A stretch of 64,000 bases of DNA from a plasmid, in the NCBI RefSeq assembly GCF_988243305.1, contig NZ_OZ547137.1. The stretch is one strand, 5' to 3'. The translations under genes were made by a program, and so were the position numbers. Positions 5,215-63,014 of this stretch are shown in pieces. Within the stretch, counting starts at the first letter, position 1, and every line of letters begins with the position of its first letter. Under the pieces are notes generated by a model, which worked only from the letters and a program-made list of their open reading frames with translations, was not told the origin of the DNA and did no database searches.

Positions 5215-7082
5215 AGATCGGGATAGGGGCTGATCTCACGATTAGCCTCCTCCCACACCACCGTACATACGGGTCCGTATACGGCAGTTCGGTTATGTTT
5301 ATCGTCGCCTGCCTATAACTCCGGTAGGCCCAGTCTGACGAACAGGCGATTGGGAAGTGCTATGCTCAGTGCCGGACTACAGCTTATCCGCCATTGCTTA
5401 TGGCAACTCCCTACCGTTTGCGCTGCAAGGTCTTTGCTTACTCCCCGTCTGCGCAACTCTTTGAAGCGCTTGCTGCCCGTTTTCCACTGTTTCCACAGGA
5501 CACTTCGCAACCTTCGCCTTATCCACCTGTTCAGATCTCTCATCAGCGTTTGCCACTGGTTCAGTCCATAGTAGCTTTTCCATCCCGTCAGATATCGCTT
5601 TAACGGTTCGATAAGCTGCTCTAGGCTTTTGCCCGTGTTACGCCCCGTCAGTTCTCTTATCCGGGTTTTGAACCGCTTCACCGATTCCGGCAACACCACA
5701 CACCACACCTTTCTGCCCCTCCTGAAGCTGTAACCCAGGAACTTACGCGTCTCCGGAAGCGCTACCGCGCTCTTCTTCGCGTTGAGCTTCAGCTTCAGTT
5801 TCCGGTTCAGCCAGTGCGTCAGCCCCGCCATCATACGGTTGCCTGCCCGTTCACTCTTCACATACACATTACAGTCGTCTGCGTAGCGGGCGAACTTCAG
5901 GCCGCGTTTCTCAAGTTCCTTATCGAAGTCATCCAGCAGCAGATTCGATAACAGTGGCGACAGTGGGCCGCCCTGCGGCGTCCCTTCTGTCACCGGCATT
6001 ACCAGACCCGCTTCCATCACACCTGCATTCAGGTACCCGCGGATAAGTGACAGCACCCGTTTATCCGATACTCGTTTCGCTATCCGGCTCATCAGTACAT
6101 CGTGATTCACCCGATCGAAGAACTTTTCCAGATCGAGGTCAACCCCCCAGCTGTAGCCCGACTCGATGTATTTCTGAGCCTGCTTCACTGCCTGATGCGC
6201 CGAGCGTCCGGGCCGGAACCCGTAGCTGCTGTCGCTGAACGTCGCATCCCACTGTGCCTGCAACACCTGCATCATCGCCTGCTGGATAAAGCGATCCACC
6301 ACCGTCGGGATGCCCAACAGACGTTCGCCGCCGCCGGGCTTCGGGATAGTCACTCTTCTTACAGGGGATGGGCGGTAGCTGCCGGACAGCAGTTGCGCTT
6401 TCAGTTCCGGCCAGTGGTGTCTCAGATAGTCCGGCAGTTCGCTTACGCTCATGCCGTCGGCTCCCGCCGCACCTTTATTGGCCTTCACTCTTTTCAGGGC
6501 ATGCCTGAGGTTGACTGGTTCGCAGATGGCTTCCATCAGCCACGCTGTTGACGATGGACTTTCTCTGGTCGTCGGTGCCTGCACGGTTTCAGCCCCCTGA
6601 GAACCGGCGTCAGGGGCTTCACCCCGTCTTCCTGCATCAGGGTCGCGATACGTTTTCTGCTGCATGACCGTTCAGAACCTCCGCTGATACTCGTCACTCA
6701 TTACCGTTCGGGCCTTCAGACGCGCCTGTCCTACTATGCCCTCTGCTGACTCCTGTCCGCCGGTCAGCGCACCTTACGGTACGCTCAGTTCTGAATACAG
6801 AACGCCAGACAGGCCTCCCGGGGTAAGCTCAGCCGCTTTCACCACACACCTGCCCAATCTACCACCCCGGCTCTTGATGGTTATGGCCTTTGCAATCAAT
6901 GGCTTGCTCCGCCAGCCGGGTAGGCCTCATATCGGATTTCTGTTCGTCAGGTCATGGTTTTGCTCCACGCTTCCTTCAGATCCCGCCTCACGACGGCACC
7001 CTTGCGCTTCACGAGTCCTTCGCCACCATCAGGCTGGACAGGGGACTTTCACCCCCGAGCTGCTGAGCATGCCCGGCACACC
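5215..7082 (-). mobile_element. group II intron (bacterial class C-like; boundaries approximate)
   Basis: 5-prime end GTGTGCCGGGCATG... on the minus strand sits right after a terminator hairpin; domain V-like stem-loop (rc of 5255..5292) and domain VI downstream of the IEP ORF. Confidence 0.75.
5313..6665 (-). CDS. group II intron-encoded reverse transcriptase/maturase (no endonuclease domain evident)
   Basis: 450 aa with RT motifs (GIPTVVDRFIQQA, FARYADDCNVYV with YADD) and a C-terminal maturase X domain. Confidence 0.9.
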   Translation of the reverse strand: MQQKTYRDPDAGRRGEAPDAGSQGAETVQAPTTRESPSSTAWLMEAICEPVNLRHALKRVKANKGAAGADGMSVSELPDYLRHHWPELKAQLLSGSYRPSPVRRVTIPKPGGGERLLGIPTVVDRFIQQAMMQVLQAQWDATFSDSSYGFRPGRSAHQAVKQAQKYIESGYSWGVDLDLEKFFDRVNHDVLMSRIAKRVSDKRVLSLIRGYLNAGVMEAGLVMPVTEGTPQGGPLSPLLSNLLLDDFDKELEKRGLKFARYADDCNVYVKSERAGNRMMAGLTHWLNRKLKLKLNAKKSAVALPETRKFLGYSFRRGRKVWCVVLPESVKRFKTRIRELTGRNTGKSLEQLIEPLKRYLTGWKSYYGLNQWQTLMRDLNRWIRRRLRSVLWKQWKTGSKRFKELRRRGVSKDLAAQTVGSCHKQWRISCSPALSIALPNRLFVRLGLPEL

Positions 7083-7429: not shown

Positions 7430-7624
7430 TCTTCAGCTTACGGGCTATCTGACGATGTGACCAGCAGTATGGTGGCAAAGCCATATCAGTCCTTTCTCTT
7501 TGAGTTCACCTAGCATTGTTATCTCCTTAAAAAATTGAGGCGACAACTATGCTGACACAGAGGGTTATTGATCTTACCCAGCAATAGTGGACACGCGGCT
7601 AAGTGAGTAAACTCTCAGTCAGAG

Positions 7625-7933
7625 GTGACTCACATGACAAAAACAGTATCAACCAGTAAAAAACCCCGTAAACAGCATTCGCCTGAATTTCGCAGTGAAG
7701 CCCTGAAGCTTGCTGAACGCATCGGTGTTACTGCCGCAGCCCGTGAACTCAGCCTGTATGAATCACAGCTCTACAACTGGCGCAGTAAACAGCAAAATCA
7801 GCAGACGTCTTCTGAACGTGAACTGGAGATGTCTACCGAGATTGCACGTCTCAAACGCCAGCTGGCAGAACGGGATGAAGAGCTGGCTATCCTCCAAAAG
7901 GCCGCGACATACTTCGCGAAGCGCCTGAAATGA
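7625..7933 (+). CDS. insE: IS3 OrfA
   Basis: [50 protein letters not shown]... (ORF track begins three codons earlier at an alternative start). Confidence 0.95.
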
Positions 7934-8796
7934 AGTATGTCTTTATTGAAAAACATCAGGCTGAGTTCAGCATCAAAGCAATGTGCCGCGTGCTCCGGGT
8001 GGCCCGCAGCGGCTGGTATACGTGGTGTCAGCGGCGGACAAGGATAAGCACGCGTCAGCAGTTCCGCCAACACTGCGACAGCGTTGTCCTCGCGGCTTTT
8101 ACCCGGTCAAAACAGCGTTACGGTGCCCCACGCCTGACGGATGAACTGCGTGCTCAGGGTTACCCCTTTAACGTAAAAACCGTGGCGGCAAGCCTGCGCC
8201 GTCAGGGACTGAGGGCAAAGGCCTCCCGGAAGTTCAGCCCGGTCAGCTACCGCGCACACGGCCTGCCTGTGTCAGAAAATCTGTTGGAGCAGGATTTTTA
8301 CGCCAGTGGCCCGAACCAGAAGTGGGCAGGAGACATCACGTACTTACGTACAGATGAAGGCTGGCTGTATCTGGCAGTGGTCATTGACCTGTGGTCACGT
8401 GCCGTTATTGGCTGGTCAATGTCGCCACGCATGACGGCGCAACTGGCCTGCGATGCCCTGCAGATGGCGCTGTGGCGGCGTAAGAGGCCCCGGAACGTTA
8501 TCGTTCACACGGACCGTGGAGGCCAGTACTGTTCAGCAGATTATCAGGCGCAACTGAAGCGGCATAATCTGCGTGGAAGTATGAGCGCAAAAGGTTGCTG
8601 CTACGATAATGCCTGCGTGGAAAGCTTCTTTCATTCGCTGAAAGTGGAATGTATCCATGGAGAACACTTTATCAGCCGGGAAATAATGCGGGCAACGGTG
8701 TTTAATTATATCGAATGTGATTACAATCGGTGGCGGCGGCACAGTTGGTGTGGCGGCCTCAGTCCGGAACAATTTGAAAACAAGAACCTCGCTTAG
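7930..8796 (+). CDS. insF: IS3 OrfB (DDE integrase domain)
   Basis: 288 aa with DDE region (WAGDITYL...HTDRGGQY...[11 protein letters not shown]); ATGA overlap with orfA. Confidence 0.95.
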
Positions 8797-8955
8797 GCCT
8801 GTGTCCATATTACGTGGGTAGGATCATATTACCCGATCTCGATGGACGTTATTGAGTGATCTCCTTCCATGAAGCTCGCCACGGGAATATCTGCGGCAGC
8901 GGGCCAGTAATGGGGTAAGTGATAGAGTTAACTCTGTGTTTTATGTGGGGATGAT

Positions 8956-9200
8956 ATGGAATTAAAACAAGACATCGAAAAAGAGATTATAAAATTAATA
9001 ATATCAGAATACATTAGTACACTTTATTATATACATCTAATTGTACAATTGATGTATAACAAAAGAAGGAAGTAAAATATCATTAGAAATGAACTCATAT
9101 TTCTTGAGAGAGACGTTAATATATCAGTAAAGTGCAAGGATATTCAGGAAGGACGTATATCGCAATCAGATTAAACAGCGCTTGATAACTCGTATCAATA
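8956..9200 (+). pseudogene. aggR-like 5-prime gene fragment (AraC/Rns-family paralog remnant)
   Basis: ~80% nucleotide similarity to the first ~230 bp of aggR at 22100; translation MELKQDIEKEIIKL... stops prematurely. Confidence 0.7.
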
Positions 9201-9493
9201 TCTATATGATAGGGTTTTTCAGCACATTATATTCATCAGGATTTTATTTTAAAAGCTAATAAAAGCTATTTTATATTGCTATGACATAACTTCTATGTAG
9301 CCATACTAATGATAAACTCTCTTTTCAGAGAGTTTTAACCCTTCGTTAATATTGCCAGTCAGCAAATCATATTCACCACGATATTGGCGTTATTGTTCAA
9401 CGCCAATATTTATTTTATTATTTCTAAAAATCTCCCTATACATTAGTTAATATAATAGCACTCCCCATTTTCAACTGAAAATTAGCGCATTAC

Positions 9494-10705
9494 TCATATC
9501 TGTGTAAATAAAAAAGGCTCCGTTTTTGACCTATTAAATAAGTCCATATCAATTTTCCAATTCTTGTCTATAAGAACTGTTCCACCATAATTTTGAATAT
9601 TAATAAGAGGGGTATTCGGCGAAACAGAGAATTTCGATAATATGCTTCCATTAATAAGGGTGTTGTCATATTTGTGATTGTCACTCAACCATGAATAATC
9701 GGATTGAACAATGGAGATATCTTTTCTTCGAGATTCACCCTCAGGAAATAATCCCTCATAACATATATGAATACTCATTTTAATGTTGTTGAAATCCAGG
9801 ATGTCCTGCTCATTATATTTCTTTTTATAATATAGAAAAGGTGATGTCGATGGTTCTGGTGAGTTATAAAAACTTTTCTTCTCAAAAAAAGGTATCAATT
9901 TGCTTTTTTGGTGGAGAAGAAACTCTTCTTTATGCCAGAAAGCAGACACTACGTTATTAATGTCTTGATATCCATAAAGATTCATTAATATCCCATATTT
10001 ATAGTGGAATCGATTATCTTTTAATTGCTTTAAGAGATGTTTAGTTCTTTCCTTTATATAATCATTCTTGTAACCGAAAAAAACATTTTCTGAGAGGATA
10101 ACTAGATCAACCTTCTTATTTCTGACGAATTCATTGAGATCAGTATAAAAATTACCTCTGACACCTACTTTTTTAAAATAAAGGCCAACCTGTACAATCA
10201 CAATGTTCAGAGGGGGATGTGTTATATTAACCGGTGTTTTCCATATTAGCGGAAATAATAATAACATAAGAGAACGGAGAAAAAATGATATTTTTAGACT
10301 AAATGTAACTGCAGGAATAAGATTTAATATTAATAAATTTAAAACAGGAATATCTGTTCTTGGTAAGATGTCAGGAAAATCATAATATAAAACAATCAAT
10401 GGATTTAATGGTATAAACATCCCGAAGGCGGATAATGAGGTTAATGAAAGGGCATGTAGACATGCTCCAAGTACCCCATAAGAACTCAGGAAACCATATA
10501 TGACAAGGGTTACCATATTATAGCAGAGTAATCCAAATGAAAGGTATAAATTAGAACTGCCATAATATTCTAAAAAACCACTAGAAAAATACATCCCAGA
10601 GAAAATGATAGAGTATAAAAGAATAGTAAAAAAAAGACTCACTCGTCTTTTTCTTGCTGCGAGATAATAGGCAAAAAAATACAATAAGACAATAGCGAAC
10701 TTCAT
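9494..10705 (-). CDS. aatD: AatD, membrane-anchored Lnt-like N-acyltransferase (CN-hydrolase fold)
   Basis: N-terminal multi-TM region plus a C-terminal domain with an ICYEGLFPE motif like the Lnt active-site Cys; last gene of the aat cluster. Confidence 0.8.
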   Translation of the reverse strand: MKFAIVLLYFFAYYLAARKRRVSLFFTILLYSIIFSGMYFSSGFLEYYGSSNLYLSFGLLCYNMVTLVIYGFLSSYGVLGACLHALSLTSLSAFGMFIPLNPLIVLYYDFPDILPRTDIPVLNLLILNLIPAVTFSLKISFFLRSLMLLLFPLIWKTPVNITHPPLNIVIVQVGLYFKKVGVRGNFYTDLNEFVRNKKVDLVILSENVFFGYKNDYIKERTKHLLKQLKDNRFHYKYGILMNLYGYQDINNVVSAFWHKEEFLLHQKSKLIPFFEKKSFYNSPEPSTSPFLYYKKKYNEQDILDFNNIKMSIHICYEGLFPEGESRRKDISIVQSDYSWLSDNHKYDNTLINGSILSKFSVSPNTPLINIQNYGGTVLIDKNWKIDMDLFNRSKTEPFLFTQI

Positions 10706-10716
10706 AAACTGTAAGC

Positions 10717-42315: not shown

Positions 42316-42452
42316 TAATCAATAAGTTATTACTTATGAAATCACACTTGTGAATTCATACTGTTTAAGCACCCTTGCATACAAGAGATCACATATTGCA
42401 GTGGTCTCTTTTTTTACAGAATAAATCACAATTCATAATTATGATTTATGAA

Positions 42453-43262
42453 TTATGCGTGTCTGTTTTTCAGCATTGTGACCGCATCGGACTCAGGCAT
42501 CGAAAACTGCACCCGGTGCCGTGCAGCCACATCCAGCGCAAACACCTTCGTGTAGACCTCCGTTGAGCTGATGGACTTATGCCCCATTAGGCTCTGCAGG
42601 ACCTTCAGTGGTATACCGGCATACAGCATGTGCATCGCATAGGAATGGCGGAACGTATGTGGCGTGACCGGGACAGAGAACGTCACACCGTCAGTAGCAG
42701 CGGCGGCAACCGCCTCCCCAATCCAGGTCCTGACCGTTCTGTCCGTCACTTCCCAGATCCGCGCTTTCTCTGTCCTGCCTGTTCGTTTATTACGCCGTTC
42801 CAGAGGAACTTTCAGTGTTGCCACCATCGTCTGCAGCTGACTGACGTACCAGGAGTCGGAGAGCGGAACCAGCCGGTGAGTCTGCTGTCCGGCAGGCGTT
42901 CTTCCTGCCGTCCTGGCGGCTTTTTCGGTCCGCTGCTTCAGAGTGGCCAGCTGCACAAACGGATACGGAGGCGCGAGCGAAAAATCCCCCCGCGTCAGCG
43001 CCAGTGCTTCATTAATGCGCGCACCGGTGTTCCACAGTGTAGCCAGCAGCATCTTGCGGCGCAGATCCGGGACGTAATGGAGCAGGGCACTCACTTCCGG
43101 AGCCAGCAGATATTTCGGCAGTTCATCATGAACCATCGACATCTGGCGAAGTGCCAGAGCTGCCGGATAATCAATGACAACAGGAAGTTGTGGAGACTGT
43201 CCGGCAGAATAAACTGCCGGTACCCTGGCTGCAGACTGGCTGTGTATAACGGAGCCTGACAT
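42453..43262 (-). CDS. resD: tyrosine site-specific recombinase (ResD-like multimer resolvase)
   Basis: C-terminal catalytic motifs (HTFRHSYAMHMLYAG...STEVYTKV); immediately downstream of ccdB as in F-like plasmids. Confidence 0.85.
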   Translation of the reverse strand: MSGSVIHSQSAARVPAVYSAGQSPQLPVVIDYPAALALRQMSMVHDELPKYLLAPEVSALLHYVPDLRRKMLLATLWNTGARINEALALTRGDFSLAPPYPFVQLATLKQRTEKAARTAGRTPAGQQTHRLVPLSDSWYVSQLQTMVATLKVPLERRNKRTGRTEKARIWEVTDRTVRTWIGEAVAAAATDGVTFSVPVTPHTFRHSYAMHMLYAGIPLKVLQSLMGHKSISSTEVYTKVFALDVAARHRVQFSMPESDAVTMLKNRHA

Positions 43263-43788
<526 letters not shown>

Positions 43789-44453
43789 AGCACACCTCTT
43801 TTTGACATACTTCTGGTATGCATATCAGTATATATTCTTATGCCGCAAAAATCAGCGCGTTAATACACATACTGTTATCTGGCTTTTAGTAAGCCTTATT
43901 TATTTTTCCTTGAATTATGTTAACCAATAAAAATTAAAATCAGACTTATAAAAACAAAGCTTAATTATCGAAGGACCATTTCCGGCAGATCCGATTTTTC
44001 TGTTATTGACGGGTTTCCGGAAGTGTACCACACTGAGGAAATCATCATATCGCTGTTTTCCGCCCCTGCGCGACGCATCACAGGTCAGGGAGATGACACA
44101 ATATATAGTGTCATCAGCAGCTGAATCCGGCACCACATGTTGTGCTTACAGGAGATGGCGTTGTGTGGGGGGAGAGGAAGATCCTGAACTTACTTTTTTC
44201 GGATCTCTGGAAAAGAAAGGAGTGAGGGATAAAAACTGACATTATTAAAAATATAAAAGCAATGCTTAAAAAGCATAAAAGCAATTTTTGTAATTACTAC
44301 TAGTACTACAAGAAGAATCTATAGTTTGAGGCGGCGTTCATGGCGGTGATCGAGCCGGACACGATTCCGGCATTAGCTGAGCTACTCACACTGAACGGGG
44401 ATCTCTTACGCGTAGACCGGCTGCCGTTCTTCTCAGAGAAGCGGTAGCCGTGG

Positions 44454-46262
44454 CTAAAGCATTAGATCTTCAAAATTCAGCGTATGGCTGTGCGGCTTTT
44501 TGCGGAAAGACAGCTCGTTTATACGAAGCTTAAGTGGCATAGGGCAGATCACGCCACTGAATATGCAGGTGCCGGTTGCAAGCGTTGGAATAGATTCTTC
44601 AGTCATGCGGTCTATATAGGAAACGGATTTTTCAATAGCATACAGATCGTTCTGATTTATCAACCGGTGAATGAAATAGTTATGTGCCTGAGAAATGATA
44701 GTCGGGGAGATATCGTTTGGTCGCTGACTGGATATCGTCACAAAGACGCCAAATTTTCTGCCCTCCTTAATTATCTCTTCAAACGTTTCGAGCCGATAAT
44801 CCTTCCAGCTTTCTGATTCCCTGAACGAGGTGTTCGAAAGGATATTGTGTGCTTCGTCTATGATGAGATGGAGAGTGGACGGTACCTTATCCATTTTTTT
44901 TGCTGAATAGGCCCATTTGGCCATTAAAAGTGGTAGCGTTTTTTTCATGGTCAGATTGACCATATTAAGGTTCAGGACAACAAAGTTCGTTTCTGCCCAG
45001 ATGGTTCCGCCGGACGCAGTATTGAAAATTTTACGAGTATCTTTTTTCAGTCCGCTCATTCGATTGATGACAGGAGAAAGATGTTCAGGATTTGAGCGAC
45101 TTGAAAGATATTCAATAATTAGCTGAACATACATATAGTCCAGCAACTCTTCCATTATATCGTCGGGAAATTCATAATTCTGAGCCATCTGGTACATATT
45201 GCACTGATGAGTATTTTCTTCATTAGAAAAGTAAACGCCTGTCTTGGTTCGCCATACGCCGCCGTTGTTATAAAAAAATTCAATATCTGCTATCAGATCT
45301 TCGTCCTTCAGTACAGGACGGAATAAATCAATCAGGTCGTCACTTTTTTTCTTTTCGCAACCAAACAGAGTTTCGGTGACCCGCCGTTTCAGAATTTCAC
45401 GAAAATATGACTGAGGGTTCAGCTTCGACTCCACTCGCTTTTTGAATTCAAGCACTCGCTTCAGAAAAGGTTTCTGCGTTTTGTCGGTGGCATCCGTCAG
45501 GACAGAGATAATCTCATGCTCAAGCAGTATCTCAGCAGGCATCGGAATGCGATCACCCTCTTCATCATGCGTGCTAAGATTATAAACAACCTTGTCGCGC
45601 GTAATGCAGCTTCTCCCACCATATTCACCATTGAAATCAAATAAAAGAAACCGTGACCGACTTCTGAATCCTTCGCCTAGTAGGTTTTTCAGGGCCTCAT
45701 AGCCATGCTGATAAAGCGCGGCCAGAGTATTGGACTTGCCGCTGCCAGTATTACCGAAGATGGCGATGTGTGAGTTGAGAAGGCCGCTTATCGGGAGAGT
45801 GATATCAATATCTTCGAGATCGGTGCGCGAAAAATTCAGCCCGGACTCGCCCGCTGGCGCGATCGAGTGGATAAGATGAAGTTGTTCCTCAGACATCAGA
45901 AAAACTTCATTGCCGATAAGGGGCAACTCGCGAGTTCCACCAGTAAAGCGCCCGTTCCGGTCAATATAGCCTGCCAGTGAGGCTGTAAGATAGCGGCGGA
46001 AGCGAAGCGAATCGCTTCCGCTACCAACAGGTGATTTTTCCTCGACAATCTTCTCGGTTTCTACCTTTGCAATCAGACTCATGAATCCTTTTTTGACTTC
46101 GATGAAACTACCTACTGAAACATTTTTGAGCACCTTACCGTGATAAAAAAGATCACTCAGATTTTTATTTTTATCGACAAGCACACTGAGTGTTCTGCCC
46201 GATACTTCACGAACCTCACCGATCCTTAATACTGCTTCTTCGTTAACAAAAGCGGAGGTCAT
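44454..46262 (-). CDS. herA: HerA-like (FtsK/HerA superfamily) ATPase, partner of the SIR2 gene
   Basis: 602 aa; Walker A GNTGSGKSN and Walker B LIIDEAHN; start overlaps the upstream SIR2 stop (ATGA). Confidence 0.75.
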   Translation of the reverse strand: MTSAFVNEEAVLRIGEVREVSGRTLSVLVDKNKNLSDLFYHGKVLKNVSVGSFIEVKKGFMSLIAKVETEKIVEEKSPVGSGSDSLRFRRYLTASLAGYIDRNGRFTGGTRELPLIGNEVFLMSEEQLHLIHSIAPAGESGLNFSRTDLEDIDITLPISGLLNSHIAIFGNTGSGKSNTLAALYQHGYEALKNLLGEGFRSRSRFLLFDFNGEYGGRSCITRDKVVYNLSTHDEEGDRIPMPAEILLEHEIISVLTDATDKTQKPFLKRVLEFKKRVESKLNPQSYFREILKRRVTETLFGCEKKKSDDLIDLFRPVLKDEDLIADIEFFYNNGGVWRTKTGVYFSNEENTHQCNMYQMAQNYEFPDDIMEELLDYMYVQLIIEYLSSRSNPEHLSPVINRMSGLKKDTRKIFNTASGGTIWAETNFVVLNLNMVNLTMKKTLPLLMAKWAYSAKKMDKVPSTLHLIIDEAHNILSNTSFRESESWKDYRLETFEEIIKEGRKFGVFVTISSQRPNDISPTIISQAHNYFIHRLINQNDLYAIEKSVSYIDRMTEESIPTLATGTCIFSGVICPMPLKLRINELSFRKKPHSHTLNFEDLML

Positions 46263-46905
46263 TTCATACCTCCAAGAAAGCTGGTTATAATTTCATTCAT
46301 CTTTTTGAAGTCCAATGGGGCTCCAGGAGTAAAAACCACATCAACATTGGAATAATCACGGAATTTATCAAGGAATAGGTCTTTAGCCGCCTCATTGTAA
46401 GCGAATATAACAATTTTGAGCGTGGCGTTTCGCAGTGCTTTCTTGGTAAGAGTTTCAATATGCTCATCCGCAAAAGAAAATCCGAAAACTATAAGCAAAG
46501 AGCCTTCTTTATCCAGCTCATTTGAATAAGTCCGTAGCAGGTCGTAATACACGTTTTCAAGTAAGGTTTCACGAAATTTATCCTTTCGCGGCAGAACCAG
46601 TTGATGTGACATAACCCAGTCCTGCTTCTCCTTTGGTGTATTGAACGCAACTGGCTTCATATCCTTAATGGAATAATAGATTTCCTTATCATAGCTATGC
46701 CAAGAAAGGGAACCATGCAGCTTGATGAGATTCACCGTAGGTAGTTCCACGCTGTAATTATAAAGGTTCCCGGTTGCGTGTATGGTCTGATAAAAACATT
46801 TGGTATCGAATACTGTCCGGTTGTAAATATCGGCGCGCTGACGGAATCCTGATCTTACCCAGCAATAGTGGACACGCGGCTAAGTGAGTAAACTCTCAGT
46901 CAGAG

Positions 46906-47214
46906 GTGACTCACATGACAAAAACAGTATCAACCAGTAAAAAACCCCGTAAACAGCATTCGCCTGAATTTCGCAGTGAAGCCCTGAAGCTTGCTGAACG
47001 CATCGGTGTTACTGCCGCAGCCCGTGAACTCAGCCTGTATGAATCACAGCTCTACAACTGGCGCAGTAAACAGCAAAATCAGCAGACGTCTTCTGAACGT
47101 GAACTGGAGATGTCTACCGAGATTGCACGTCTCAAACGCCAGCTGGCAGAACGGGATGAAGAGCTGGCTATCCTCCAAAAGGCCGCGACATACTTCGCGA
47201 AGCGCCTGAAATGA
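46906..47214 (+). CDS. insE: IS3 OrfA
   Basis: Identical protein to 7625..7933. Confidence 0.95.
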
Positions 47215-48077
47215 AGTATGTCTTTATTGAAAAACATCAGGCTGAGTTCAGCATCAAAGCAATGTGCCGCGTGCTCCGGGTGGCCCGCAGCGGCTGGTAT
47301 ACGTGGTGTCAGCGGCGGACAAGGATAAGCACGCGTCAGCAGTTCCGCCAACACTGCGACAGCGTTGTCCTCGCGGCTTTTACCCGGTCAAAACAGCGTT
47401 ACGGTGCCCCACGCCTGACGGATGAACTGCGTGCTCAGGGTTACCCCTTTAACGTAAAAACCGTGGCGGCAAGCCTGCGCCGTCAGGGACTGAGGGCAAA
47501 GGCCTCCCGGAAGTTCAGCCCGGTCAGCTACCGCGCACACGGCCTGCCTGTGTCAGAAAATCTGTTGGAGCAGGATTTTTACGCCAGTGGCCCGAACCAG
47601 AAGTGGGCAGGAGACATCACGTACTTACGTACAGATGAAGGCTGGCTGTATCTGGCAGTGGTCATTGACCTGTGGTCACGTGCCGTTATTGGCTGGTCAA
47701 TGTCGCCACGCATGACGGCGCAACTGGCCTGCGATGCCCTGCAGATGGCGCTGTGGCGGCGTAAGAGGCCCCGGAACGTTATCGTTCACACGGACCGTGG
47801 AGGCCAGTACTGTTCAGCAGATTATCAGGCGCAACTGAAGCGGCATAATCTGCGTGGAAGTATGAGCGCAAAAGGTTGCTGCTACGATAATGCCTGCGTG
47901 GAAAGCTTCTTTCATTCGCTGAAAGTGGAATGTATCCATGGAGAACACTTTATCAGCCGGGAAATAATGCGGGCAACGGTGTTTAATTATATCGAATGTG
48001 ATTACAATCGGTGGCGGCGGCACAGTTGGTGTGGCGGCCTCAGTCCGGAACAATTTGAAAACAAGAACCTCGCTTAG
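47211..48077 (+). CDS. insF: IS3 OrfB
   Basis: Identical protein to 7930..8796. Confidence 0.95.
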
Positions 48078-48734
48078 GCCTGTGTCCATATTACGTGGGT
48101 AGGATCATCCATCATTCAGAATGACGTTGTTATTTTTAACCGCTGCATCCTCAATGAACAAATCATAGTTAGTCGTAAAGAGGTTGATACGCCGCGGTAG
48201 CAATCCAGTCCGCCGCCTCGTCAGAAGCATTTCTAATGCACGCATGAGCTTCGCGTAGTTGTTTTGTGTCGATACGACATCATCTATTAAAGTAGGAAGG
48301 ATTACCTCTGCGGGCAAGCTTCGCTTCAGGAGGACGTTGTTTGCCTTCCATACATTGTCCAGAAAAGACTCAGATTTACTGAAGTATTCATCATCCTTTC
48401 CGGCGCGGACCAGAGCCTCAAGCTCGCTTTCAATATCACCTAACACGCTGATTGCAGGCAGCGATGCTCCTGAGCCAATGATGAAATTGATGTTTGCTGA
48501 TTGAAATATGCGCTCAAAATATTCACGATCTCTGTCCTGCCCGTAGTAAGCCCGATAAGTCGCCACGCTGTGCCTTTCCTTAAATATCGTAGATAAGATG
48601 TATCTTACATGTTTCAACAAGTGATGCATCCTGTTTAAATTTCATTCTCTGACTCATATACAAACGCAGCTAAACGAATCAGGTAGGTAGTTTCATTGCT
48701 TCCGGCTTCACCAGAAACCGGATCTGACCTAGAA

Positions 48735-53553: not shown

Positions 53554-54531
53554 GTGGATAAGTCGTCCGGTGAGCTGGTGACACTGACACCAAACAATAA
53601 CAACACCGTACAACCTGTGGCGCTGATGCGTCTGGGCGTCTTTGTACCGACCCTTAAATCACTGAAGAACAGTAAAAAAAATACACTGTCACGTACTGAT
53701 GCCACGGAAGAGCTGACACGTCTTTCCCTGGCCCGTGCAGAGGGATTCGATAAAGTTGAGATCACCGGCCCCCGCCTGGATATGGATAACGATTTCAAGA
53801 CCTGGGTGGGGATCATTCATTCCTTTGCCCGCCATAACGTAATTGGTGACAAAGTTGAACTGCCTTTTGTCGAGTTTGCAAAACTGTGTGGTATACCTTC
53901 AAGCCAGTCATCCCGCAGGCTGCGTGAGCGCATCAGCCCTTCCCTGAAGCGCATTGCCGGTACCGTGATTTCGTTTTCCCGTACCGATGAGAAGCACACC
54001 CGGGAATATATCACCCATCTGGTACAGTCAGCCTACTACGATACTGAGCGGGATATTGTGCAGTTACAGGCCGATCCCCGCCTGTTTGAACTGTACCAGT
54101 TTGACAGAAAAGTCCTTCTCCAGCTTAAGGCGATTAATGCCCTGAAGCGACGGGAGTCCGCCCAGGCACTCTACACCTTTATAGAGAGCCTGCCCCGGGA
54201 TCCGGCACCGGTATCGCTGGCGCGGCTGCGTGCACGCCTCAATCTGAAGTCTCCTGTATTTTCCCAGAACCAGACGGTCAGACGGGCAATGGAGCAGTTG
54301 CGCGAGATTGGATACCTTGATTACACGGAGATCCAGCGGGGGCGGACAAAATTCTTCTGTATTCACTACCGGCGTCCCCGGTTAAAAGCGCCGAATGATG
54401 AGAGTAAGGAAAATCCGTTGCCACCTTCACCTGCGGAAAAAGTCAGTCCGGAGATGGCGGAGAAACTTGCCCTGCTTGAAAAACTGGGCATCACACTGGA
54501 TGACCTGGAAAAACTCTTCAAATCCCGCTGA
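53554..54531 (+). CDS. repA: RepFIB replication initiator RepA
   Basis: 325 aa [65 protein letters not shown]...; iteron arrays on both sides. Confidence 0.9.
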
Positions 54532-60720: not shown

Positions 60721-61686
60721 TTACGTTGCTCTGACGCGGGAGGCTCCGTGTTTTGCCCACAACGCAGTGATCACCGGCACGACAATGGCGGTGATCACCA
60801 CACAGGATGCCACCAGAGTGGTGGCTGCCGGTGCGGCCTCAGCGAAGTCCGGCGCGATCTCGGCTACCAGCAACGGAGTGGCCACGGCAGCGCCAGCAGT
60901 ACTCGATGCGGCAATTCCAGCCGTGCCACGGCCCTTACCCAGCATGATATCCATGATTATCAGTGGTACGCCTGTGATAACAATGACTGCCAGAGCCATA
61001 AGAATACCCAGCAGTCCGGTGTCGATGATGACGCCAAGATTAATGGTATTCCCCAACGCAAATGCAAAGAATGGGATCAGACTTTTGGTGGCCCTGGAAA
61101 ACAATTCCCGAAGTTCGGGATCAAGATTACCCAGCAAAAAACCCACCAGAAAGGGGATCAGGACGCCGGCGAGGTGTTCAGGTTCGAACGTTGCCTGCCC
61201 GGCGGCCCCCAGAATAATCATCGTCATCAGGGGGCCGGACTCAAGCGAGATAAGTACAGAAGCACCGGCTTCTTCTTTTGTGCCGTACTCCTGCATCAGG
61301 GAAGCATAAAGCCCGGCATTGGTCATATCCATCGCCGCAACAATCGCCAGAACAGATAAACCGGCAAAGAAACCTGTTTTTACCATTCCCCCTTCCGGTA
61401 GGAGCTGGGCAAAAACAAAGGCACAGACCCAGGCAGTGGCGATTTTTGTGGCTACCAGTGTGCCAGACTTTTTGAGAACGGTCCCGGTTGCACTGATTTT
61501 AATGGAGGCGCCCATACAGAACAGCCAGACAGCGAGGATGGGGACCACGCCGGTGATCATGCCATTAGTAAATGAACCAAAGTATTTGCCGGTACCTGGC
61601 CAGAAGGTATGCAGTACCGCCCCCAGAAACAGGGGGACCAGCATCATTCCTCCCGGAATTTTTTCAACTGTTTTTTTGATATTCAT
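60721..61686 (-). CDS. KdgT-family 2-keto-3-deoxygluconate-type permease
   Basis: 321 aa polytopic membrane protein with KdgT-like profile. Confidence 0.75.
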
Positions 61687-61718
61687 TATCGTCCCTTTTT
61701 AATGTCAGATACGGCCAG

Positions 61719-62099
61719 TCAGAGCACCATGATGGCTTCAATTTCAATAACAGCCCCCTGCGGCAGGGCGGCGATACCCAACGTAGCCCTGGCGGGGTAC
61801 GGTGTCGAAAAGTATTCCGACATAATGGCGTTAAATCGCGGGAACATGTTCACGTCGGTCAGATAGGCATTCAGCTTCACAATATCCCTATCACTCCCTC
61901 CTGCGGCCTCTGCCACCGACAGCAAATTTTTAAACGCCTGACGGGCCTGTTCATCGAAATCTGTTGAGACCACTTGCATGGTATGCGGGTCAAAACCGAC
62001 CTGACCGGCGAGATAAATGGTTTCCCCGGCTTTCACCGCCTGAGATAATGCCCCACCGGGGGCAGGAGCCCCGGTGGTATAAATGATGTCTTTTTTCAT
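61719..62099 (-). CDS. RidA/YjgF-family enamine/imine deaminase
   Basis: 126 aa, MKKDIIYTTGAPAPGGALSQAVKAGETIYLAGQ... RidA signature. Confidence 0.85.
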   Translation of the reverse strand: MKKDIIYTTGAPAPGGALSQAVKAGETIYLAGQVGFDPHTMQVVSTDFDEQARQAFKNLLSVAEAAGGSDRDIVKLNAYLTDVNMFPRFNAIMSEYFSTPYPARATLGIAALPQGAVIEIEAIMVL

Positions 62100-62123
62100 G
62101 ATGTGCCTCCTGTCCTTTTGCGG

Positions 62124-63014
62124 TTACAGACCGAACAATTTGTCTAGGCAGTCTGCCTGGTCGGCTGTTAACTGGCCGTTATGATTCCGTGAGACCGGCG
62201 TCATGTAGCCATACTTTCTGGAAATGGCGGTTTTGATCGTACTGACAAAATCATCACCAATGGCATATATCCCGGAAAGTCGCCCAATTTCTTTGTGTAA
62301 TCCGGCGACTTCATTGAGGTCGCCGGCCCGATAGGCCCGCATAATTTGGGCAAAAAGCTCCGGCACCACATTATTCAGTCCGGAAAGAACTCCGGCGCCT
62401 CCGTTCATCAGATTGGGTACAAAGTACTCATCAAAACCGGCGAATACGGCAAAATCTTTTCTCAGCGGTGTGACCGCGTTGACGATGGCCCGGGTGTGAG
62501 ACGCACAGTCCACAGTATCTTTGATGCCAATAAACCGCGGGCAGCTTTCCGCCAGCATTCTGACAAGGTGAGCATCCACATCACATCCGGTTCTGGCCGG
62601 GAAGTTATAGATAAACCAGTCACCGGCAAGTTTACGGTCAAGACTGCGGAAATAGCTAAGTAACTGACGGGATGTCTGGGCGTAGTAATACTGTGGCAGT
62701 ACCATTACTGCGTCATAGCCACTGTCATAGGCGGCATCAGCCAGATAAAGCATGTCCTCTTCAACGGTAGATGAAATATGGGCAATCAAAGGGAGGTCAC
62801 TCATTTTCCGGGCTTCCAGGATGAGCATTGCCCGTTCGCGGACGCTCATTGTGGCAAATTCCCCGATGGTACCTGATAGCAGAATGCCGTTGATGCCGGA
62901 ATCAGAAAGGCGTGCCATATGTTTTTCCAGCCCCGTGAGGTCTATCTGACCGCTGTCATCCAGAGGAATGACGGAAGGGCAGACTGCCCCTGAAAACTTC
63001 ATTGTCTGATTCAT
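62124..63014 (-). CDS. DapA/NanA-family class I aldolase (dihydrodipicolinate synthase-like lyase)
   Basis: 296 aa with family-typical TIM-barrel motifs (GILLSGTIGEF...IGIKD). Confidence 0.8.
   Translation of the reverse strand: MNQTMKFSGAVCPSVIPLDDSGQIDLTGLEKHMARLSDSGINGILLSGTIGEFATMSVRERAMLILEARKMSDLPLIAHISSTVEEDMLYLADAAYDSGYDAVMVLPQYYYAQTSRQLLSYFRSLDRKLAGDWFIYNFPARTGCDVDAHLVRMLAESCPRFIGIKDTVDCASHTRAIVNAVTPLRKDFAVFAGFDEYFVPNLMNGGAGVLSGLNNVVPELFAQIMRAYRAGDLNEVAGLHKEIGRLSGIYAIGDDFVSTIKTAISRKYGYMTPVSRNHNGQLTADQADCLDKLFGL

Follow-up and report, generated by a model that had tools for sequence, protein, structure and literature searches.

Three identical IS3 copies, one of them inside a SIR2 gene, bracket the virulence genes on a pAA plasmid of enteroaggregative Escherichia coli

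How did three identical copies of one insertion sequence (IS), all pointing the same way, come to lie among the virulence genes of a single plasmid, and what follows for the genes between and beneath them? The question is raised by a 64,000-nucleotide stretch of plasmid DNA (NCBI RefSeq assembly GCF_988243305.1, contig NZ_OZ547137.1; hereafter the window), which belongs to a pAA virulence plasmid of the AAF/I type from enteroaggregative Escherichia coli (EAEC) and carries three copies of IS3. A repeat search and base-by-base comparison delimited each copy to 1258 bp on the plus strand, with 0 mismatches in all three pairwise comparisons. Every copy is enclosed by its own 3-bp target-site duplication (TAT, AAC, and TCC for copies 1, 2, and 3, respectively); the probability of matching 3-bp flanks arising by chance at all three copies is about (1/64)^3 = 4e-6. 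Identity among the copies runs at most 1 bp past the element ends, as chance allows, and the repeated unit is the IS alone and no larger segment. The original prediction had reported three identical, directly oriented 1258-bp copies starting at 7569, 14799, and 46850 with these same duplications, and its coordinates, sizes, and duplications were all correct.

Empty versions of the three sites were searched for in the PLSDB and RefSeq collections with queries composed of the left flank, one triplet, and the right flank. Site 2 was empty in 35 PLSDB plasmids, where all 2000 bp of the query matched in one piece at up to 100.0% identity; in plasmid 55989p (NC_011752.1) it reads ...GAGGTAAACAGGATG... 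with a single AAC. Site 1 was crossed uninterrupted in ~30 PLSDB and 34 RefSeq records, and site 3 was uninterrupted in every plasmid carrying the SIR2-HerA region into which copy 3 is inserted. An occupied site 3 was not present in PLSDB, and of the 5,426 complete E. coli genomes in RefSeq, none covered at least 80% of the occupied configuration. Because each copy has its own perfect duplication and the empty targets with a single triplet are found in relatives, the three copies very probably represent three independent insertions that, within the collections searched, occur in this plasmid alone. That the insertions are independent and recent, as originally proposed, is thus supported by the duplications together with the empty sites in related pAA plasmids, and the comparison of IS3 occupancy with such relatives, which had been envisaged as a check, found the same sites vacant.

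The term recent should be taken to rest on private occupancy and not on copy identity. The latter was considered as a dating tool and rejected, as the IS3A copy of E. coli K-12 differs by 1 base from the copies described here and that of 55989p by 0. Each copy keeps its own matched duplication, and there has therefore been no recombination between the copies since insertion. Nor have they yet given rise to a rearrangement, because positions 16056-44207 of the window are colinear with pRHBSTW-00670_2 (CP056358.1), the best overall relative, with 99.83% identity over 28,153 bp.

By its sequence, the element is canonical IS3, the type element of the IS3 family, and nothing within it differs from IS3 of K-12. 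As many as 1254 of 1255 aligned bases are the same as in IS3A of E. coli K-12 MG1655 (99.92%; 1 mismatch). By the ISfinder convention, copies of the same element share more than 95% DNA identity, a threshold that the copies described here exceed. The ends read TGATC... and ...GATCA and form imperfect terminal inverted repeats, with 28 of the first 40 positions matching between them. In copy 1, an A4G slippery motif, CCAAAAG, is located at 7894, 5' of the orfA stop codon and ahead of the overlapping orfB in the -1 frame. OrfB scored 339 bits against the NCBIfam profile NF033516 transpos_IS3 (cutoff 160). OrfA corresponds to profile positions 1-87 and OrfB to positions 90-369, so that together they tile the profile, which fits the expectation for a frameshift fusion. 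An Rfam scan gave no family match within IS3 itself, such as a frameshift element. Length (1.2-1.55 kb), TG...CA ends, reading frames in phases 0 and -1, a transposase of the DDE type, and a 3-bp target duplication all place the element in the IS3 group of the IS3 family. With IS3A-E of K-12 (insE/insF) it shares length, ends, the -1 overlap of orfA and orfB with the A4G motif, and 3-bp duplications; what is new is confined to the three insertion sites, judged against PLSDB and the complete E. coli genomes in RefSeq.

Several points weigh against, or limit, the conclusion of three recent independent insertions. Copy identity provides no insertion date, IS3 being ~99.9% conserved across E. coli. 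The copies are known solely from the assembly, and polishing can homogenise repeats, so their exact identity rests on that assembly. Deletion products, IS circles, and the loss of SIR2-HerA function, which are treated below, are predictions from sequence. Dependence on the assembly leads to the possibility that a single IS3, or reads from chromosomal IS3 copies, had been misplaced three times. Repeats as long as 1.26 kb are well known to cause misassembly, and the copies are suspiciously perfect. The unique flanks of each copy are, however, contiguous in relatives and are joined to the element by an exact 3-bp target duplication. Repeat collapse loses copies and does not add them, and because misassembly does not produce target duplications where relatives have contiguous sequence, we dismissed an artefact as highly improbable. 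A composite transposon, IS3-aat-IS3, that brought the dispersin exporter operon aat to the plasmid as a unit would account for two direct IS3 copies around a discrete functional cargo, and the outer ends, i.e. the left inverted repeat of copy 1 and the right inverted repeat of copy 2, are a valid transposase substrate. Yet the outer flanks differ (TAT on the left and AAC on the right), and the duplications belong to the individual IS copies. Furthermore, dozens of pAA plasmids that have neither IS3 copy carry aat in this location between the same flanking sequences, from which it is deduced that aat was there first. Composite-transposon delivery of aat, which calls for one shared outer duplication and for relatives that lack aat at that site, was rejected and is scarcely credible.

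Copy 1 might also be the same ancestral insertion as an IS3 in 55989p, and would then be old. At 34120-35377, that plasmid carries a 100% identical IS3 in nearly the position of copy 1, offset by 1 bp from site 1. Its orientation is opposite, however, and its duplication is ATT and not TAT; an in-place flip would retain TAT on both sides, and all other close relatives are empty at site 1. An in-place inversion linking the two elements was rejected because their positions differ by 1 bp and their duplications are not the same, and shared ancestry is accordingly very unlikely. Independent insertion of copy 1 agrees with the fact that the site-1 configurations of the window and of 55989p both collapse to the same empty sequence, GGGTTATTACCC. 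The 1-bp offset, the reversed orientation, and the different duplication imply that site 1 was hit twice independently.

Such a double hit is suggestive of an IS3 hotspot at site 1 without proving it. The probability of coincidence is on the order of 0.01-0.1 when one roughly allows for how many IS3 insertions the compared pAA plasmids carry. A target resembling the inverted repeats, in the manner of IS911, was considered as the cause of a hotspot and rejected: when the IS3 ends were aligned locally to ±60 bp of each empty site, scores of 13-16 were obtained, which is at background (median 15, 95th percentile 20). IS3 is found elsewhere on related plasmids as well. In pSCU-318-1, it occupies the equivalent of window position ~18966 with the duplication ATT. 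In pRHBSTW-00670_2, it lies at 37071-38328, after vapBC, with unmatched flanks (...AAC / CAA...); this copy may have taken part in recombination or in an adjacent deletion. IS3 has been described as frequent on EAEC plasmids (PMC3079680). A literature search for the particular IS3 configuration described here yielded nothing beyond general remarks on how common IS3 is on EAEC plasmids.

Copies 1 and 2 lie in pre-existing IS debris that flanks aat, and the operon is left intact. Copy 1 is located ~670 bp downstream of the aatD stop codon among IS2-like remnants and pieces of group II introns; its left flank matches an IS2 remnant, and no gene is broken. To the left of site 1, a group II intron occupies 5313-6997 on the minus strand, with a 450-amino acid open reading frame whose matches in relatives are annotated as ltrA and with Rfam D1-D4 matches at 6711-6997. 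Copy 2 resides 343-376 bp upstream of the aatP start, within the left end of a degenerate element that we take to be IS629-like and 3 bp ahead of the ribosome-binding site and ATG of its orfA. An old IS3-like left-end remnant (14643-14747, plus strand, 105 bp) lies 52 bp to its left; this remnant is 93% identical to IS3 positions 1-105 and present in all relatives. The remnant indicates that the region upstream of aat had been struck by IS3-family elements before. As it already cuts aatP off from all sequence beyond it, the promoter of aat would lie between 14456 and 14642 and would be untouched by copy 2. The region upstream of aatP (14643-14798 and 16057-16303) is a nested graveyard of IS elements conserved in relatives, consisting of the IS3-like remnant, the IS629-like left end, and the degenerate orfA; a group II intron fragment (Rfam RF00029, 16232-16303, minus strand) is also part of it. 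A second IS3-related remnant was seen just downstream of aap (21337-21572, minus strand), with 87% identity to IS3 positions 1010-1258.

Copy 3 is located inside the SIR2 gene of a SIR2-HerA operon, in the orientation opposite to that of the operon. In silico removal of the IS and one TCC restored a SIR2 open reading frame of 369 codons, which gave a full-length match to the PADLOC model SIR2 PDLC04080 (E = 7e-163). In the interrupted gene, the N-terminal fragment meets a stop codon straight away, a TGA in the reverse strand of the IS3 end; an exact search for the 174-residue truncated product found no record. The HerA ATPase gene is intact. It lies downstream of the interrupted SIR2 gene and is therefore probably affected by polarity. 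Adjacent genes for a SIR2-domain protein and a HerA ATPase are thus present, of which one is no longer intact. Judged from the split reading frame, copy 3 almost certainly inactivates SIR2, and the SIR2-HerA system is predicted to be non-functional. Intact versions with 97-99.7% identity reside next to a KfrA-like gene on many plasmids of E. coli, Klebsiella, and Enterobacter. SIR2-HerA, also termed Nezha, is a characterised NAD+-depleting anti-phage system (PMC11514289, PMC11472057). The locus resembles Nezha in its neighboring SIR2 and HerA genes and differs in that SIR2 is cut by IS3 after codon 174. A more far-reaching scenario combines a burst of IS3 transposition with retention of the SIR2 copy as advantageous and with a true hotspot at site 1 that has an uncharacterised target determinant. 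We consider this combination unlikely. If it were true, the benefit of the SIR2-HerA knockout could be, for example, relief of cost or autoimmunity, or permission to acquire another mobile element.

The features of the window are compiled in Table 1. The original prediction had stated that copies 1 and 2 bracket aat and that copies 2 and 3 bracket ~31 kb with aap, aggR, the AAF operon, and partition and toxin-antitoxin genes, and the gene positions agree with this. It had overlooked the interruption of SIR2, the neighboring insertion in 55989p at site 1, the IS debris at copies 1 and 2, and the presence of ccdAB in the larger block.

Table 1. Positions of the IS3 copies and of genes in the 64,000-nucleotide window
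Feature	Position	Strand	Remarks
IS3 copy 1	7569-8826	+	duplication TAT at 7566-7568 / 8827-8829
IS3 copy 2	14799-16056	+	duplication AAC at 14796-14798 / 16057-16059
IS3 copy 3	46850-48107	+	duplication TCC at 46847-46849 / 48108-48110
orfA (copy 1)	7634-7933	+	99 amino acids, frame 0
orfB (copy 1)	7930-8796	+	288 amino acids, -1 frame, overlaps orfA
aatD-aatC-aatB-aatA-aatP, dispersin exporter operon	9494-14455	-	intact, bracketed by copies 1 and 2
aap	20909-21259	+	between copies 2 and 3
aggR	22100-22897	+	between copies 2 and 3
aggDCBA, AAF/I fimbrial operon	32394-36759	-	between copies 2 and 3
parM	40202-41173		between copies 2 and 3
ParA-like gene	41402-42046		small adjoining open reading frame annotated as CopG-family regulator in pRHBSTW-00670_2
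ccdB	43263-43568	-	NCBIfam CcdB NF010262, 214 bits (cutoff 147)
ccdA	43570-43788	-	toxin-antitoxin module with ccdB, between copies 2 and 3
HerA ATPase gene	44454-46262	-	602 amino acids, intact, 4-bp overlap with SIR2 stop codon; PADLOC HerA PDLC04097, E = 2e-221, full length
SIR2 gene, split	46259-48629	-	N-terminal fragment 48108-48629, C-terminal fragment 46259-46849; break after codon 174
RepB-type (FIB) initiator	53554-54531		outside the repeats; by colinearity with 55989p

The aat operon is 99.9% identical to that of 55989p and of several plasmids of 73-78 kb. Copies 2 and 3 enclose 30,793 bp, in which aap, aggR, and aggDCBA (20909-36759) make up the core of the AggR regulon; besides the genes listed, this block contains idi, an isoprenoid biosynthesis gene, an ISL3 element, a tyrosine recombinase, HerA, and the C-terminal part of SIR2. 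The ISL3-family transposase gene (30303-31922, minus strand, 539 amino acids, 374 bits against NCBIfam transpos_ISL3) lies directly downstream of aggA and is also present in pRHBSTW-00670_2. Between aggR and idi, Rfam matches were obtained on the plus strand to the small RNA STnc490 (24893-25017, 140 bits) and to the ALIL pseudoknot (25916-26014, 81 bits); both are tied to IS elements and transposase frameshifting, and probably mark another IS remnant. Beyond copy 3, a gene for the 2-keto-3-deoxygluconate transporter KdgT (495 bits, above cutoff) and a DapA/aldolase-family gene were found at 60721-63014 on the minus strand, in a region that has no match in 55989p.

From established IS3-family biology, the accumulation of copies would proceed as follows. 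The OrfAB transposase would be produced via -1 ribosomal frameshifting in the overlap of orfA and orfB. Transposition would follow the copy-out/paste-in route, in which the donor stays in place and a circular copy of the IS integrates with a 3-bp target duplication. Copy number would thus climb, with each new copy identical to its source. The direct 1258-bp repeats could then serve as substrates for RecA-dependent recombination, which would delete a segment and leave one IS3 with hybrid flanks. Recombination between copies 1 and 2 is predicted to delete 7,230 bp with loss of aat, and between copies 2 and 3, 32,051 bp with loss of aap, aggR, AAF/I, par, ccdAB, and HerA; the predicted deletion between copies 1 and 3 comprises 39,281 bp and would remove all of both blocks. 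Deletion by recombination between the copies, which was also foreseen originally, is a sound expectation from their arrangement. Judged from the annotation of the blocks in relatives, the excised circles would be without an annotated replication gene. Loss of the larger block may be partly counter-selected, because the ccdAB addiction module is inside it. In a related pAA plasmid, however, CcdAB was reported to have only a weak stabilising effect, <10-fold (PMC11950199). The copies would also offer homology for cointegration with a chromosomal IS3, and because the outer ends of every pair of copies are valid substrates of the transposase, new composite units could in principle form.

Parallels are known for both the arrangement and its expected consequences. 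The F plasmid carries two IS3 copies, one of which interrupts finO, and they mediate formation of Hfr strains. The window is similar to F in that several IS3 copies reside on an IncF-type plasmid, one of them inactivates a plasmid gene, and together they provide portable homology for recombination. It differs from F in that the insertion inactivates a SIR2 defence gene and the copies bracket virulence genes, and in that integration and deletion are here predicted only. On pINV of Shigella flexneri, recombination of the IS copies that flank the type III secretion system island removes this island (Pilla, McVicker and Tang 2017, PMC5629016), and toxin-antitoxin modules nearby protect adjacent DNA (PMC5629016). 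Direct IS copies around a virulence block of ~30 kb and an IncF-like plasmid are common to pINV and the window, as is a toxin-antitoxin module within or near that block, which should bear on which deletions can persist. The pINV deletions, in contrast, were shown experimentally and with other IS types, whereas those considered here are predicted.

The three copies are hence an ordinary and already known element acting as expected and not a new kind of system. What the analysis adds is the disruption of SIR2, the double hit at site 1, and the vacancy of each of the three sites in relatives. The practical weight of these findings is modest, and the understanding of IS3 and of pAA plasmids is unchanged. 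Site 1, hit twice, supplies a minor data point on how IS3 chooses its targets, and the insertion in SIR2 is one more natural case of an IS silencing a plasmid-borne phage-defence system. For the plasmid as a virulence determinant, the arrangement means that aatA/CVD432 and aggR, the two standard diagnostic targets for typical EAEC, could disappear along with the AAF/I adhesin through a single recombination event. Such a deletion would spare the plasmid backbone with RepFIB, and derivatives of this strain could turn probe-negative and non-adherent.

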